A DNA stretch of 64,000 nt, taken from NCBI RefSeq assembly GCF_044324875.1, contig NZ_CP172185.1. The stretch is one strand, 5' to 3'. Source of the stretch: Escherichia coli (GTDB taxonomy: Bacteria > Pseudomonadota > Gammaproteobacteria > Enterobacterales > Enterobacteriaceae). Of the stretch, positions 35,716-40,062 are shown one piece after another (position 1 is the first letter of the stretch; each line of letters starts with the position of its first letter). The notes below the pieces were generated by a model. It searched no databases. It worked only from the letters and a program-made list of their open reading frames with translations, and was not told the DNA's origin. Made by a program: the position numbers and the translations under genes.

Positions 35716-35922
35716 AATATAATTCATGGATGGTTGAAATATATCCCTGCTTTTCAACCATCCTAAAAAAGCATGAATTGCTCGCTCTACCCTAAGTGGC
35801 TGTGCTATTTTAGAAAAACTTAATCCTGAGTTAAGCAAAAAAACATAATACAAATAAATACAACAGCAACATTATTGATCAAGTGAATGATTTATAGAAG
35901 AGATAATATAACGGAGTATGTT

Positions 35923-36825
35923 ATGGCGAATCTTTATGACCTAAAAAAATTTGATCTGAATTTACTGGTCATATTTGAGTGTATTTATCAACATCTCAGC
36001 ATTAGTAAAGCGGCAGAATCATTATATATAACGCCCTCTGCTGTTAGTCAGTCGTTACAACGTTTACGTGCGCAATTTAATGACCCGTTATTCATTCGCT
36101 CAGGGAAAGGTATCGCGCCGACTACGACAGGGTTAAATCTGCATCATCATCTTGAGAAAAATCTCAGAGGCATTGAACAAACGATCAATATTGTTAATAA
36201 GTCTGAGCTAAAGAAAAATTTTATTATCTACGGTCCTCAGCTTATTTCTTGTACTAATAACAACATGCTAATCCGCTGTCTTAGACAAGATACTTCAATC
36301 GATATAGAATGCCATGACATACTGCTTTCAGCTGAAAATGCCGAAGAACTGTTGGTTCAACGCAAAACTGACCTGGCAATTACACTACAACCAGTAATTA
36401 GCCGCTCTGTCATCTGCATGCCGTTACATACTATTCGCAATTCTCTTATATGTAGCAACAAACATCCTCGTATTACCGATACCAGTAACTATGAACAAAT
36501 TATCGCCGAAGAATTCACCTTGTTAATATCTAAATCAGCAGGGATTGACGAAATTCAAATGGACATAGATGAACGTTTTATGAACCGTAAAGTTTCATTT
36601 CGCAGTTCTTCTTTGTTGACGATAATTAATAGTATTTCTGTTACTGACTTATTGGGCATTGTGCCCACCGAACTGTACGATTTACATCGTGATTTTTTGA
36701 AGTTACAAGAGATAAAACTGGAACGACCACTTCCTGCGGTTAAACTTTATATTTCCTATAACAAGGCTTCGTTGAACAACCTTGTCTTCTCACGATTCAT
36801 AGATCGTTTAAATGATAGCTTCTGA
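35923..36825 (+). CDS. ybdO: LysR-family transcriptional regulator YbdO
   Basis: ORF trimmed to MANLYDLKKFDLNLL start (300 aa); N-terminal HTH; conspicuously AT-rich coding sequence. Confidence 0.8.
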   Translation: MANLYDLKKFDLNLLVIFECIYQHLSISKAAESLYITPSAVSQSLQRLRAQFNDPLFIRSGKGIAPTTTGLNLHHHLEKNLRGIEQTINIVNKSELKKNFIIYGPQLISCTNNNMLIRCLRQDTSIDIECHDILLSAENAEELLVQRKTDLAITLQPVISRSVICMPLHTIRNSLICSNKHPRITDTSNYEQIIAEEFTLLISKSAGIDEIQMDIDERFMNRKVSFRSSSLLTIINSISVTDLLGIVPTELYDLHRDFLKLQEIKLERPLPAVKLYISYNKASLNNLVFSRFIDRLNDSF

Positions 36826-36971
36826 TTTATTACCACGGATAAATGTTATATTACGCATCAATTGATTCATTGTGTGAATATAAAATAATGTGCTCTATCT
36901 TGCTTCGTTTACCCTATAATTAGCGGATTCATCTCACGAGTCACCCCGTAACGTTCAGAGAGCGTTTTCAG

Positions 36972-38192
36972 ATGTCTATTTATAAAATCCCGCTTCCACT
37001 GAATATTCTGGAAGCTGCAAAAGAACGTATTACCTGGACACTTAACACCCTACCCCGCGTCTGCGTTTCTTTTTCGGGTGGTAAAGATTCCGGATTAATG
37101 CTGCATCTGACCGCCGAACTTGCCCGACAAATGGGCAAAAAAATTTGTGTTTTATTTATCGACTGGGAAGCTCAGTTCTCTTGCACCATTAACTATGTTC
37201 AGTCCCTGCGCGAGTTGTACACCGATGTCATCGAAGAGTTTTACTGGGTTGCGCTCCCGCTTACAACGCAAAATTCCCTATCACAATACCAACCCGAATG
37301 GCAGTGCTGGGAACCTGATGTCGAATGGGTACGTCAGCCCCCGCAAGATGCGATAACCGATCCTGACTTTTTCTCCTTTTACCAGCCTGGCATGACCTTC
37401 GAACAATTTGTGCGTGAGTTTGCCGAATGGTTTTCGCAAAAACGTCCGGCGGCGATGATGATCGGCATCCGTGCGGATGAGTCCTACAACCGTTTTGTCG
37501 CCATCGCCAGTTTAAATAAACAACGTTTTGCCGATGATAAGCCCTGGACCACTGCCGCACCAGGCGGTCATAGCTGGTACATTTACCCCATCTACGACTG
37601 GAAAGTCGCTGATATCTGGACCTGGTATGCTAGCCATCAACGCCTCTGTAACCCACTGTATAATATAATGTATCAGGCAGGCGTTCCTCTACGTCATATG
37701 CGAATTTGCGAACCTTTTGGTCCGGAACAACGGCAAGGATTATGGCTCTATCACGTTATCGAACCGGATCGCTGGGCTGCTATGTGCGCACGAGTCAGCG
37801 GGGTAAAAAGTGGCGGCATTTACGCCGGACATGACAACCATTTTTATGGTCATCGGAAAATCCTCAAGCCCGAACATTTAGACTGGCAGGAGTATGCATT
37901 ATTGCTACTCAACAGCATGCCGGAGAAAACAGCTGAGCATTATCGCAATAAAATCGCCATTTATTTGCACTGGTATCAGAAAAAAGGCATCGAGGTTCCA
38001 CAAACCCAGCAAGGGGACATTGGCGCGAAAGATATCCCCTCCTGGCGGCGAATATGCAAAGTTTTACTCAATAACGATTACTGGTGTCGGGCATTATCAT
38101 TTAGCCCGACCAAAGCGAAGAACTATCAGCGTTATAACGAACGAATAAAAGGAAAACGTCAGGAATGGGGGATACTATGCAACAACGATTAA
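36972..38192 (+). CDS. ybdN: PAPS-reductase-like / PP-loop ATP pyrophosphatase family protein YbdN (IbrA-like)
   Basis: 406 aa; PP-loop SGGKDS at residues 35-40 (nt 37074..37091); 3' end overlaps ybdM by 28 nt. Confidence 0.8.
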   Translation: MSIYKIPLPLNILEAAKERITWTLNTLPRVCVSFSGGKDSGLMLHLTAELARQMGKKICVLFIDWEAQFSCTINYVQSLRELYTDVIEEFYWVALPLTTQNSLSQYQPEWQCWEPDVEWVRQPPQDAITDPDFFSFYQPGMTFEQFVREFAEWFSQKRPAAMMIGIRADESYNRFVAIASLNKQRFADDKPWTTAAPGGHSWYIYPIYDWKVADIWTWYASHQRLCNPLYNIMYQAGVPLRHMRICEPFGPEQRQGLWLYHVIEPDRWAAMCARVSGVKSGGIYAGHDNHFYGHRKILKPEHLDWQEYALLLLNSMPEKTAEHYRNKIAIYLHWYQKKGIEVPQTQQGDIGAKDIPSWRRICKVLLNNDYWCRALSFSPTKAKNYQRYNERIKGKRQEWGILCNND

Positions 38193-38794
38193 CGCAGGAT
38201 TTAACCCAATTTCTCGCCAGCTTGCCGGAAGACGATCGCATCAAAGCGATTAATGAAATCCGCATGGCGATCCATCAGGTTAGCCCCTTTCGAGAAGAGC
38301 CAGTGGATTGCGTTCTGTGGGTTAAAAACAGCCAACTTATGCCTAATGATTACAACCCAAACAACGTGGCACCACCCGAAAAAAAACTGCTGAAAAAATC
38401 CATTGAAATAGATGGTTTTACCCAACCCATTGTGGTCACGCATACGGATAAAAATGCCCTGGAAATCGTGGATGGTTTTCACCGCCATGAAATTGGTAAA
38501 GGCTCATCATCGTTAAAATTACGCTTAAAAGGTTATTTGCCGGTGACCTGTCTGGAAGGTACGCGTAATCAACGCATCGCCGCGACTATTCGTCATAACC
38601 GCGCTCGTGGTCGCCACCAAATCACTGCCATGTCCGAAATTGTTCGTGAACTCAGCCAGTTGGGATGGGACGATCATAAAATCGGCAAAGAGCTGGGAAT
38701 GGACAGCGACGAAGTGCTGCGCCTGAAACAAATTAATGGCCTGCAAGAGTTGTTTGCCGACCGTCAATATTCCCGTGCCTGGACTGTCAAATAA
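38165..38794 (+). CDS. ybdM: ParB/Srx-like domain protein YbdM (IbrB-like)
   Basis: 209 aa; DGFHR motif (nt 38471..38485) resembling the DGQHR/ParB box. Confidence 0.8.
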   Translation: MGDTMQQRLTQDLTQFLASLPEDDRIKAINEIRMAIHQVSPFREEPVDCVLWVKNSQLMPNDYNPNNVAPPEKKLLKKSIEIDGFTQPIVVTHTDKNALEIVDGFHRHEIGKGSSSLKLRLKGYLPVTCLEGTRNQRIAATIRHNRARGRHQITAMSEIVRELSQLGWDDHKIGKELGMDSDEVLRLKQINGLQELFADRQYSRAWTVK

Positions 38795-39955
38795 CTACAG
38801 CTGGCGCAGGCGTTCAGCTGCAGCCAGCAACGTCGATTCCTTCTTGGCAAAACAGAGACGAATCAGTTTATGGGGGAAGGGATCGGCGCAAAACACCGAC
38901 AGCGGAATCGCCGCTACACCGTGCTCCCGCGTCAGCCACTGGCAAAACTCAACGTCATCCAGCGAAGAAACCGCGCTGTAATCCACCAGCAAAAAGTAAG
39001 TGCCTTCGCACGGTAAAATCTCCAGCCGACTCTCACTTAAGGCATTCACCAGAATATCGCGTTTCTGGCGATAAAAGTCCGGTAACGCAAGATAATGCTC
39101 AGGTTCTGCACGTAGCATATCCGCAAGTGCCAGCTGTGCCGGGGTATTCACCGAAAAGGTCAGATACTGGTGTACCTTGCGAATTTCAGCGCTGATGGGC
39201 GCTGGCGCAACGCAATAACCCACTTTCCAGCCGGTCATATGATAGGTCTTGCCAAATGAAGAAACTGCCACCGCCCGCTCACGCAGCTGCGGATGCGCCA
39301 GCACGCTGGCATGGCCCTGTTGTGAAAAGTTGATGTGCTCGTAAACTTCATCGCTAATGACAAAAATCTCGTGCCCGCCGATCGCCTGCCACAAAGCGGC
39401 GAAATCAGCCTGCTGCCAGACAGTTGCACTGGGGTTATGCGGGGTGTTGAGGATCACCAGTCGGGTGCGCTCGCTTAACAATGCGGCAAATTCCTGCCAG
39501 TCCACGCGAAAATGCGGTGGTTGCAGTGCAATACGTTTCACTATTCCCCCCGAAAGCGCGATGGCGGGCGCGTAACTGTCATAGCTGGGATCAAAGCAGA
39601 TCACTTCATCACCATTGCGCACCAATGCGGTAATCGCTGCATATAACGCTTCCGTCGCCCCTGCCGTTACGGTGATATCGCTATCGGCATCCGGTTGATA
39701 GCCATACAGACGTTCCGTTTTCTGAGCAATCGCCTCGCGCAAGGCCTGCACGCCAGTCATAGGCGCGTATTGGTTTGCCCCCTGGGCAACGTGGTACGCC
39801 AGCCGCTCCTGCAAATAGCGCGGACCATCAAAATCAGGAAAGCCTTGTGACAGGTTAATCGCCTGGTGTTGCTGCGCCAGCGCGCTCATCTGGGTGAAAA
39901 TAGTGGTGCCAAGTTGTGGAAGTTTGCTTTGTGGAATCAGAGGGTTATTTGTCAT
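38795..39955 (-). CDS. ybdL: methionine aminotransferase (PLP-dependent, class I)
   Basis: 386 aa; PLP-lysine context SSFGKTYHMTGWKVGY; stop codon abuts ybdM stop (convergent, zero spacer). Confidence 0.88.
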   Translation of the reverse strand: MTNNPLIPQSKLPQLGTTIFTQMSALAQQHQAINLSQGFPDFDGPRYLQERLAYHVAQGANQYAPMTGVQALREAIAQKTERLYGYQPDADSDITVTAGATEALYAAITALVRNGDEVICFDPSYDSYAPAIALSGGIVKRIALQPPHFRVDWQEFAALLSERTRLVILNTPHNPSATVWQQADFAALWQAIGGHEIFVISDEVYEHINFSQQGHASVLAHPQLRERAVAVSSFGKTYHMTGWKVGYCVAPAPISAEIRKVHQYLTFSVNTPAQLALADMLRAEPEHYLALPDFYRQKRDILVNALSESRLEILPCEGTYFLLVDYSAVSSLDDVEFCQWLTREHGVAAIPLSVFCADPFPHKLIRLCFAKKESTLLAAAERLRQL

Positions 39956-40062
39956 TTTTTATTGTGCCTGACGAAGTTGTGTTGAAGGCACTATAACACG
40001 ATGCTAGCATTTGGCAATCAAGACGTTTAGATGTCTAAATAAAACAATAAGGACAACACAAC

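Follow-up and report, generated by a model that had tools for sequence, protein, structure and literature searches.

The ybdN–ybdM gene pair of Escherichia coli: a PP-loop enzyme and a minimal ParB-like protein that most likely form one DNA-directed complex

All together, the data presented here indicate that YbdN and YbdM, the products of an already known, still uncharacterised gene pair of Escherichia coli, most likely constitute one DNA-directed complex and do not serve sulfur metabolism. Both proteins have recognisable folds and conserved motifs, the YbdN family has intact catalytic motifs and lacks a conserved cysteine, and the two genes are paired almost obligatorily in genomic contexts that favour a nucleic-acid-directed role. 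For the complex itself we infer a heterodimer, a DNA substrate and an adenylation chemistry.

Organisation and regulation of the ybdN–ybdM locus

The pair was analysed within a window of 64,000 nucleotides of E. coli DNA (contig NZ_CP172185.1), all the features described below lying on the plus strand. The ybdN gene (36972..38192) encodes 406 amino acids and ybdM (38165..38794) encodes 209, the two overlapping by 28 nt (38165..38192) with the ybdM ATG located within ybdN; a second in-frame ybdM ATG is found at 38177, and the overlap would persist also from there. These open reading frames, their overlap and the positions of the SGGKDS (37074..37091, amino acids 35–40 of YbdN) and DGFHR (38471..38485, amino acids 103–107 of YbdM) motifs agree on re-check with the original prediction, and the gene identities assigned there are borne out by the annotation of ybdN and ybdM at this locus in the complete E. 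coli genomes, 5422 of 5426 of which carry it. An identical 28-nt overlap is found in the Citrobacter, Pseudocitrobacter and Superficieibacter orthologues, and the gene junctions in other loci mostly consist of an overlap or of a gap of a few bases. The overlap kept in the enterobacterial orthologues, together with the same-strand adjacency observed in 83 of 90 loci (see below), is consistent with translational coupling. Since dS values against Citrobacter are saturated, dN values alone were compared: those of ybdN (0.094) and ybdM (0.154), set against those of the neighbouring ybdL (0.088) and dsbG (0.089), indicate that both genes are under purifying selection.

The gene order is ahpC-dsbG-citR(ybdO)-ybdN-ybdM-ybdL. 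The citR gene (35923..36825), whose RefSeq start corresponds to residue 13 of this open reading frame, encodes a LysR-type repressor of ybdNM matching the NCBIfam CitR model NF047710 at 452 bits (cut-off 400). The gene is AT-rich (GC 33–38%) and H-NS-bound. Published work identifies CitR as the repressor of ybdNM, with a ChIP-exo peak upstream of citR-ybdNM and an increase in ybdN (listed value 5.5) following citR deletion (PMC9068703), and reports that H-NS represses ybdO, that is citR (PMC4720273). The AT-rich citR–ybdN intergenic region (36826..36971) is the presumed ybdNM promoter and operator; it contains a single, weak sigma-70-like match (36862–36889), detected in a promoter and terminator scan that returned 5 sites against the 8.1 expected from shuffled sequences, so that the match by itself carries no evidential weight. 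ybdNM is best explained as a core E. coli chromosomal operon kept almost silent under H-NS and CitR.

YbdN domains and motifs

YbdN belongs to the IbrA family of PP-loop ATP pyrophosphatase/adenylyltransferase-like enzymes and matches PHROG 2302 at 1e-76. Its PAPS_reduct (adenine nucleotide alpha-hydrolase) domain (37059..37673, amino acids 30–234; Pfam PF01507, 2.4e-13) is followed by DUF3440 (37680..38120, amino acids 237–383; PF11922, 5e-23), a helical C-terminal domain for which no structural relative was found. The PAPS-reductase-family fold of YbdN was confirmed. In an alignment of 60 homologues, reaching down to 27% identity, residues G37, K38 and S40 of the PP-loop are invariant, and S35, G36 and D39 are conserved in at least 90% of the sequences. 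Specifically, inside the PAPS_reduct domain, which contains RADES (37470–37484) and YDW..D.W, the conserved residues are D64, E66, R167, E170, S171, R174, D209, W210 and D214, and the RxxES..R and DW..D.W motifs are retained, like the PP-loop, down to 27% identity. Judged from its sequence, YbdN looks catalytically intact.

By profile comparison, the closest relatives of YbdN are the adenylyltransferases CysD (1zun, 9e-11) and FAD synthase (1e-9), with the reductases behind them. The catalytic cysteine of CysH lies in a C-terminal ECGLH-type motif; among the 60 YbdN homologues no invariant or near-invariant cysteine is found, C246 being replaced by serine in several of them. Because the family has no invariant cysteine, sulfur chemistry of the CysH or DndC type appears unlikely. 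The NCBIfam CysH models score YbdN far below their cut-offs (TIGR02057, 34.1 bits versus 254; TIGR00434, 23.8 versus 165; NF002537, 33.3 versus 154), and thus do not place it in a plain sulfate-assimilation clade.

YbdM fold and motifs

YbdM, described in 2022 as 'completely uncharacterized', is a minimal ParB/Srx-fold protein of the IbrB family, which combines the ParB N-terminal domain fold and a GxxR box with a predicted helix-turn-helix. It matches PHROG 2159 at 4.5e-69, the Pfam ParB_N match being weak (3e-4). Three family motifs are near-invariant across 40 YbdM-family sequences: NDYNPN, DGFHR and RHNRARGxH. The first (38345..38362, amino acids 61–66), aligned to ParB and Noc, is the counterpart of the ParB 'PNPYQPR' sequence, with N61, N64, P65 and N66 invariant. 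The DGFHR box, counterpart of ParB box II (GERR) and of the Srx GCHR, has D103, G104 and R107 invariant and H106 conserved in at least 90% of the sequences. The arginine-rich family signature RHNRARGRH (38591..38617, amino acids 143–151), which probably occupies the position of ParB box III, shows invariant N145, G149 and H151, and R143, R146 and A147 conserved in at least 90%. Every ParB motif position in YbdM is filled by family-specific invariant residues, followed by the helix-turn-helix (38630..38734, amino acids ~156–190, GMDxDEVLRLKQ), where G178, M179, E183 and L187 are conserved and which corresponds to helices 589–601, 606–613 and 617–625 of the fused model described below.

The catalytic cysteine of sulfiredoxin lies in its GCHR motif; at this position YbdM carries the phenylalanine of DGFHR, and the whole family has F or Y. 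As for chromosome partitioning, the parB_part model TIGR00180 scores YbdM at 15.8 bits versus a cut-off of 58.45, the protein ends right after the helix-turn-helix, and no parA gene is adjacent; YbdM therefore falls outside the partition clade.

Pairing and genomic neighbourhoods

The survey of gene neighbourhoods covered 171 loci, drawn from phages, viral contigs, bacteria and a single archaeal MAG. A word-index protein search gave close enterobacterial homologues only, and the diversity of the set derives from a representative search and from locus scans. A YbdM homologue lies beside about 94% of the YbdN homologues, usually on the same strand and overlapping. Specifically, of 90 loci encoding a YbdN homologue, 88 also had one of YbdM, in 83 cases adjacent and on the same strand, and the pairing recurs in 72 of 80 viral contigs. 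In isolated phages, 224 records carry ybdN homologues and 226 carry ybdM homologues, with nearly identical host breakdowns covering at least four bacterial phyla. Plasmid records with the module number more than 800, virulence plasmids of Klebsiella being among them, and gut Bacteroidota, Firmicutes and Verrucomicrobia carry it as well. A YadA-like adhesin gene and virulence loci are neighbours of plasmid paralogues, and many chromosomal copies have housekeeping genes around them. Membership of YbdN in a sulfate-assimilation clade and of YbdM in a partitioning clade, with no conserved co-occurrence, had been named as grounds for abandoning the original prediction; the CysH and ParB scores and this near-obligate co-occurrence point in the opposite direction.

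In most viral contigs the pair lies within the replication module, and its neighbours there include Sak4, a RecE-like exonuclease, helicases and a protein in which a C5-methyltransferase-type motif, GGFPCQPYS, was read by eye. Extra ParB-like genes and a terminase adjoin the pair in actinophages, Bacillus phages and Rhizobium phages, and in several isolated phages it abuts terminase or portal genes. A late-gene activator or packaging role, suggested by this last adjacency, was not adopted, because elsewhere the pair follows the lysis genes, as in Streptococcus and Lactobacillus phages, or lies in the replication module. An association with DNA methyltransferases in phages, which first seemed strong, was likewise downgraded: the 'methyltransferase' neighbour in the Rhizobium phages is another ParB-like protein, and for the PHROG 11826 'methyltransferase' neighbour the best Pfam support has an unconvincing E-value of 0.18.

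An SNF2-like helicase gene is present in 42 of the 171 loci and, in the clustering, directly precedes the ybdN homologue in 17 of 21 loci from genomes and phages and in 17 of 22 viral ones. Variant loci also encode an EctC-like cupin (137 bits, cut-off 128) or a domain of ~125 amino acids, here called 'X', fused to the YbdM homologue; the latter has no PHROG, NCBIfam or Pfam match, and the Bacteroidota c5 protein has no PHROG or NCBIfam match. The cupin and the X domain argue for a chemistry that goes beyond DNA binding alone. All the DNA-related accessory genes of the variant loci are absent from the E. coli version. Across the 171 loci no defence gene, restriction partner or reader protein recurs among the neighbours, nor do tRNA genes or RNA-binding domains recur near the pair.

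The phage replication and recombination genes, the extra ParB-like genes and the SNF2-like helicase favour a nucleic-acid-directed module over a metabolic enzyme pair. On this point genomic context favours the proposal of a nucleic-acid modification or sensing module; the literature consulted reports no modification or sensing activity of the pair, and no measurement of DNA modification, ATPase activity or DNA binding for any family member.

Five homologues of unusual length, examined by eye, showed no natural fusion of the two proteins. An AF2 model of an artificial YbdN–linker–YbdM fusion reached a pTM of 0.79, despite a 30-residue linker at pLDDT 35–49, and showed new strands at YbdN 5–11 and YbdM 204–208 that do not appear in the model of YbdN alone. 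The single pTM value of this linker-fused monomer prediction suggests that YbdN and YbdM form a heterodimer.

Comparison with known systems

The system nearest to ybdNM is IbrA/IbrB, the immunoglobulin-binding regulators of E. coli ECOR-9, a member of the same two-gene family with the same overlapping gene order. YbdN combines PAPS_reduct and then DUF3440 in one protein, with an adjacent, co-oriented IbrB-type gene, and is ~58% identical to the IbrA-type paralogues of plasmids and islands. The kinship proposed originally fits the RefSeq and phage annotations of relatives ('IbrB-like domain-containing protein', 'IbrA/IbrB'). Whereas ybdNM is an operon of the core chromosome controlled by CitR and H-NS, IbrAB is carried by acquired islands or plasmids, and a phenotype has been reported for it, the activation of eib genes: Eib expression is enhanced when IbrB is present (Sandt 2002, summarised in PMC7649339), and the activation of silent prophage genes is reported for IbrAB only.

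The architectural analogy with DndC/DndB of DNA phosphorothioation holds at the superfamily level. DndC/DndB and SspD likewise couple a PAPS-reductase-family PP-loop enzyme with a ParB/Srx-superfamily GxHR protein, and the SGGKDS of YbdN is a PP-loop ATP pyrophosphatase motif as in DndC. Beyond this level the analogy fails. DndC carries a 4Fe-4S cysteine triad and a cysteine dyad (PMC10853773) with no conserved counterpart in the YbdN family; the DndC model TIGR03183 scores YbdN at 21.7 bits versus a cut-off of 290.4, and the PADLOC DndC match is a partial stretch, also of 21.7 bits; DUF3440 is specific to the YbdN family; and YbdM matches none of the PADLOC Dnd models and lacks the DndCDE context of DndB. 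The absence of DndA-, DndD- or DndE-like partners, noted originally, is confirmed, the neighbours of ybdNM being citR, ybdL, dsbG and hcxA, and no Dnd partner gene recurs in the 171 loci. The BREX type 4 protein BrxP matches at only 18.4 bits over 74 residues (PADLOC), and no brx genes lie nearby.

As a functional parallel for a ParB protein that gates a DNA-modifying enzyme, the 7-deazaguanine system DpdA/DpdB comes closest: there a ParB-like NTPase is required for the action of a separate enzyme on duplex DNA (PMC12839542). The likeness is one of function, the catalytic partner there being a TGT-fold transglycosylase and that of YbdM a PP-loop enzyme. In the CysD–CysN ATP sulfurylase, an NTPase partner controls the adenylyltransferase CysD, which among solved structures is the nearest to YbdN by profile; however, CysN is a GTPase of the translation-factor type and sulfate serves as the acceptor, whereas YbdN has DUF3440 and a ParB-fold partner. 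YbdM also matches the ParB module of ParB-domain methyltransferases and stand-alone ParB-like proteins (PHROG 498, PADLOC MTase_II), genes of this kind adjoining the pair in several phages, but there the ParB domain has a methyltransferase as its fusion partner or companion. Finally, YbdM differs from the VirB/KorB-type ParB-family regulators in its 209-residue length without a C-terminal dimerisation domain, in having GFHR and not GERR, and in its requirement for an enzyme partner.

Discussion

On the preferred but tentative reading, possible rather than probable, ybdNM would encode a ParB-targeted, ATP-dependent adenylating complex acting on DNA. YbdN and YbdM would be the two subunits of an IbrA/IbrB module of phage or plasmid ancestry. 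YbdM, a minimal ParB whose DGFHR and RHNRARGxH motifs may shape an NTP-type pocket next to the helix-turn-helix, would bind DNA and position or gate YbdN; the PP-loop of YbdN would split ATP into AMP and PPi and the enzyme would move the AMP to a target oxygen, either a base carbonyl or a phosphate; and a non-sulfur nucleophile would then take the place of the activated group, so that the DNA would carry either a covalent mark or a processed site. The outcome may be a changed expression of horizontally acquired genes, as with IbrAB turning on prophage eib genes, or in phages, alternatively, the marking or protection of replicating DNA. The substrate of the pair could instead be RNA, protein or a small molecule, and the sole experimental phenotype, being transcriptional, could arise with no covalent chemistry.

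This last point underlies a doubtful, still credible alternative, in which YbdN and YbdM would co-activate transcription or counteract silencing and leave no covalent mark: YbdM/IbrB would act like VirB, loading onto DNA under nucleotide control and displacing H-NS from AT-rich acquired genes, while YbdN/IbrA, handling a nucleotide, would serve to load, recycle or regulate it. However, conservation of the pair is just as strong in phages of Firmicutes, Actinobacteria and Bacteroidota, where H-NS is lacking, YbdM has no ParB-type C-terminal dimerisation domain, and a simple loader would not readily account for the strict PP-loop conservation together with the cupin and helicase accessories.

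Modification of RNA (e.g. tRNA) or protein, as carried out by many PP-loop enzymes (TilS, TtuA, ThiI, Cap9 in CBASS), seems improbable for an enzyme that is paired with a ParB/HTH protein and repeatedly accompanied by an SNF2-like DNA translocase and by phage DNA-metabolism genes, with no recurring tRNA genes or RNA-binding domains. We give a similarly low credence to a conflict system, be it phage counter-defence or host defence, acting on nucleotide pools or signalling nucleotides and not on polymeric DNA. The spread of the pair in phages, plasmids and prophage-like regions, the proposal of ParB/Srx enzymes as nucleotide-degrading effectors (PMC10853773) and the 10% growth cost of YbdM overexpression would suit it; against it, the DndC and BrxP matches in PADLOC are marginal and at superfamily level, defence genes do not recur, and many copies lie among chromosomal housekeeping genes. 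An ordinary assimilatory PAPS/APS reductase or viral sulfur-metabolism auxiliary gene with an unrelated YbdM, as the RefSeq and PHROG product name and the family fold would have it, is effectively refuted by CysH scores of 24–34 bits (TIGR cut-offs 165–254), by a canonical PP-loop without a conserved cysteine, and by a DUF3440 domain and an obligate ParB partner that are foreign to CysH.

Returning to the adenylating complex, a broader and more speculative extension, unlikely though conceivable, is that IbrA/IbrB (YbdN/YbdM) represents a class of ATP-driven machines for DNA modification that is independent of sulfur and has so far gone unrecognised. In it, the ParB-like subunit would deliver the PP-loop adenylating enzyme, optional SNF2 translocase, EctC-like cupin or X-domain subunits would extend the chemistry, and the mark would allow phages, plasmids and many bacteria to evade silencing or restriction, the E. 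coli copy being cryptic.

ybdN and ybdM are among the remaining genes of E. coli K-12 with no known function, and the one phenotype reported for their family is the switching on of silent prophage genes. With the repressors CitR and H-NS known, and the catalytic residues and the partner defined, the hypothesis is directly testable in E. coli. Should YbdN and YbdM prove to be a DNA-directed adenylating enzyme, the known DNA-modification systems would be joined by one with a new chemistry, which could also explain how some mobile elements activate H-NS-silenced virulence genes.

The ybdNM operon in Escherichia coli

Both open reading frames, the SGGKDS PP-loop of ybdN (36972..38192, plus strand), the DGFHR box of ybdM (38165..38794, plus strand) and their 28-nt overlap lie exactly where the original prediction had placed them. 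The region 35800-40000 was matched by megablast in 5422 of 5426 complete E. coli genomes, with citR, ybdN ('phosphoadenosine phosphosulfate reductase'), ybdM ('IbrB-like domain-containing protein') and ybdL annotated in the matching genomes; therefore, the gene pair is the already known ybdNM operon, which follows the LysR gene ybdO/citR. The GC content is 33-38% in the AT-rich citR and citR-ybdN spacer, 45-50% in ybdNM and approximately 54% in the flanks.

Downstream, the stop codons of ybdM and of the convergent ybdL (38795..39955, minus strand) abut at 38792..38797, with zero intergenic bases and no space for a terminator in between. Upstream, a perfect 12-nt inverted repeat (35728..35763, GGATGGTTGAAA / TTTCAACCATCC, arms 12 nt apart) starts 13 nt past the dsbG stop codon and is probably the dsbG terminator, setting dsbG apart from the promoter region of citR, to which H-NS binds. 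In the closest RefSeq genome (NZ_OW967178.1), which differs from the window by a 1-bp indel, ybdN is annotated with a length of 1164 nt and stops 29 nt short of ybdM, so that this strain lacks the overlap; an IS1 is present in the citR region of other strains (hits H4-H6). In Escherichia albertii NBRC 107761, the species representative, the ybdM homologue right behind the intact ybdN is broken up into ORFs of 51 and 120 aa (locus L013:54-1309), and is probably a pseudogene.

According to published data, CitR binds upstream of citR-ybdNM, and the increases listed for a citR deletion are 5.5 for ybdN and 2.5 for ybdM (PMC9068703); ybdO is repressed by H-NS (PMC4720273). In addition, YbdM increases 29-fold in MG1655 with a CTX-M-15 plasmid, and its overexpression carries a 10% growth cost, in a study whose authors call YbdM completely uncharacterised (PMC8764527).

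Conserved pairing of YbdN and YbdM homologues

By scanning one genome per species we obtained 80 loci, spanning Proteobacteria, Verrucomicrobia, Firmicutes, Bacteroidota, Tenericutes, Lentisphaerae and a Heimdallarchaeota MAG. When these were combined with 10 phage loci, a YbdM-type ORF was found near the YbdN-type ORF in 88 of 90 cases: 81 loci have ybdN then ybdM on the same strand, with gaps of approximately -200 to +85 nt, mostly a few bases, and two have the reverse order. The two YbdN-type ORFs without a partner comprise one at a contig end and one apparently genuine case. Both genes are also present on 72 of 80 IMG/VR contigs. A lack of conserved co-occurrence, which was to count against the original prediction, is thus clearly contradicted. 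Among 50,697 phage records searched by tblastn, 224 contain a YbdN homologue and 226 a YbdM homologue, with a nearly equal host breakdown for both genes (Flavobacterium 90, Mycobacterium 60, Streptococcus 21, Arthrobacter 12, Bacillus 8).

YbdN, YbdM and their predicted complex

YbdN consists of a PAPS_reduct domain (aa 30-234) and a DUF3440 domain (aa 237-383; Pfam), and no structural relative was found for the helical DUF3440 half. The protein scores far under every curated sulfur-assimilation and Dnd cut-off (CysH 24-34 bits against 165-254, on which CysH was rejected as its identity; CysD 18-24 against 195-413; DndC 21.7 against 290). It has marginal PADLOC matches only, to DndC and BrxP, and strong PHROG matches (2302 at 1e-76, 15645 at 9e-86). 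Across 60 homologues, down to 27% identity, the PP-loop is kept, with G37, K38 and S40 invariant. Also kept are the motifs RxxES..R and DW..D.W and the residues D64, E66, W119, S171, D214 and Y230; no cysteine in the same alignment is invariant or nearly so. Of the proteins with solved structures, the adenylyltransferases CysD (9e-11) and FAD synthase (1e-9) come closest by sequence profile, with reductases ranking behind. On these results, we conclude that YbdN is an intact enzyme of the ATP pyrophosphatase or adenylyltransferase type, for which thiol-based or Fe-S-based sulfur chemistry is unlikely.

YbdM matches Pfam ParB_N weakly (3e-4) and PHROG 2159 strongly (4.5e-69). Near-invariant in 134 family members are NDYNPNxVAPPE, DGYTQPIV and VDGFHR, which align with the corresponding ParB motifs, as well as TIRHNRARGxH and GMDxDEVLRLKQ; we infer that RHNRARG occupies the box III position. 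The family profile matches ParB, Noc and Spo0J structures (1e-6 to 1e-4) and, more weakly, SbnI and serine kinase. YbdM is a minimal ParB, composed of the N-domain and a helix-turn-helix without the dimerisation domain. A partition ParB and a sulfiredoxin were both rejected as its identity, given the missing dimerisation domain and the F at the sulfiredoxin Cys position.

All together, the pair belongs to the IbrA/IbrB family. The proposed likeness to DndC/DndB holds only for superfamily-level features, and the pair does not pass the defining tests of either protein; the family goes unmentioned in recent comparative-genomic surveys of Dnd and BREX systems.

The complex was modelled from a paired alignment of 30 N-(GGGGS)6-M fusions. 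The fused model reached pLDDT 85 (linker 35-49) and pTM 0.79; for a randomly placed YbdM we estimate a pTM of about 0.56 (406/645 x 0.89). Two strands appeared in the fused model and not in that of YbdN alone, namely YbdN 5-11 and YbdM 204-208, the latter within the conserved FSxAW tail. The prediction is compatible with a defined YbdN-YbdM heterodimer.

Accessory genes and neighbourhoods

Accessory genes were counted over 171 loci, among which the E. coli operon represents the minimal form. An SNF2-like helicase of approximately 415 aa (GTGKTR, DESxxIKN, LNGTP and RIGQ motifs; PHROG 62 at 1e-60) is present in 42; by clustering, it lies directly upstream of the ybdN homologue in 17 of 21 genome and phage loci and 17 of 22 viral loci. 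In seven alphaproteobacterial MAG loci (L044, L046, L053, L055, L057, L060, L068) it lacks Walker A and retains the rest, which suggests an inactivated subunit that may only bind DNA.

A domain of approximately 125 aa, the X domain (WEChKAGFY, SCEHYLTN, NRIAWLGQA), is free-standing in 29 of the 171 loci (for example L143:7407-7832) and C-terminally fused to the YbdM homologue in 18 (L115:4163-5413, L117:6769-7980, L028:5848-7035 and 15 others). It has no match in Pfam, PHROG or NCBIfam, and the E. coli window does not contain it.

Ten loci, mostly phage or viral, carry an ectoine-synthase-like cupin between or fused to the paired genes (L137:9281-9652, L139:4532-4915, L154:7738-8112, L155:6707-7081, L159:2517-3002), N-terminally fused to the YbdM homologue in three (L042:1125-2225, L144, L156). 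It passes the NCBIfam ectoine-synthase cut-off (NF009806; 137 bits against 128), an unexpected enzyme in a phage DNA-metabolism cluster. Furthermore, a protein of approximately 140 aa lies upstream of the ybdN homologue in 12 Bacteroidota loci.

On viral contigs, genes for Sak4, a RecE-like exonuclease and helicases neighbour the pair, as does a gene whose product shows a motif of the C5-methyltransferase type on reading by eye. Further ParB-like genes surround the pair in actinophages, Bacillus phages and Rhizobium phages, where it also adjoins terminase. In Mycobacterium phage Phlyer (L004:1069-5236), overlaps of 4 nt each join the IbrA-like gene, the IbrB-like gene and the gene for the large terminase, which contains an intein; the annotation lists no small terminase. 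Many chromosomal copies lie amid housekeeping genes.

Mechanism and alternatives

We tentatively favour the possibility that YbdN-YbdM would form a ParB-targeted, ATP-dependent adenylating complex acting on DNA, because of the obligate pairing of an enzyme with a ParB, the conserved catalytic residues in both subunits, the DNA-translocase and DNA-metabolism contexts and the enzyme-type accessory genes. The nearest functional analogies are DpdA/DpdB, in which a ParB-like NTPase enables a DNA-modifying enzyme, and CysD/CysN, in which an NTPase gates an adenylyltransferase.

The main rival is a VirB- or KorB-like anti-silencer that would leave no covalent mark. On plasmids, the pair occurs in 855 PLSDB records, including an IbrAB-type paralogue of approximately 58% identity. 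On the E. coli IncF plasmid p100 (L173:4904-10844) the paralogue adjoins a YadA-like (Eib-like) adhesin gene, and on a K. pneumoniae plasmid (L174:7580-12315) it lies between the fec (fecIA) and iro (iroBCDN) loci. Plasmid paralogues of this type further adjoin a gene of the OmpA family and one for an S6 autotransporter protease, and Shigella plasmids of approximately 215-230 kb retain only fragments of them. Anti-silencing agrees with such virulence-gene neighbourhoods and with the eib phenotype, Eib being expressed more strongly when IbrB is present (Sandt 2002, cited by PMC7649339). However, it explains neither the conservation in H-NS-free phyla nor the intact PP-loop, and we consider it rather unlikely. 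RNA or protein as the target is improbable, and equally so a conflict role on nucleotide pools; sulfate assimilation is effectively excluded.

In conclusion, the genes and their family are already known; new, as far as searchable papers show, are the accessory modules, the predicted heterodimer, the finding that no cysteine is conserved and the figures for how often the two genes are paired. The function of ybdNM, including the putative adenylating activity on DNA, is directly testable in E. coli.
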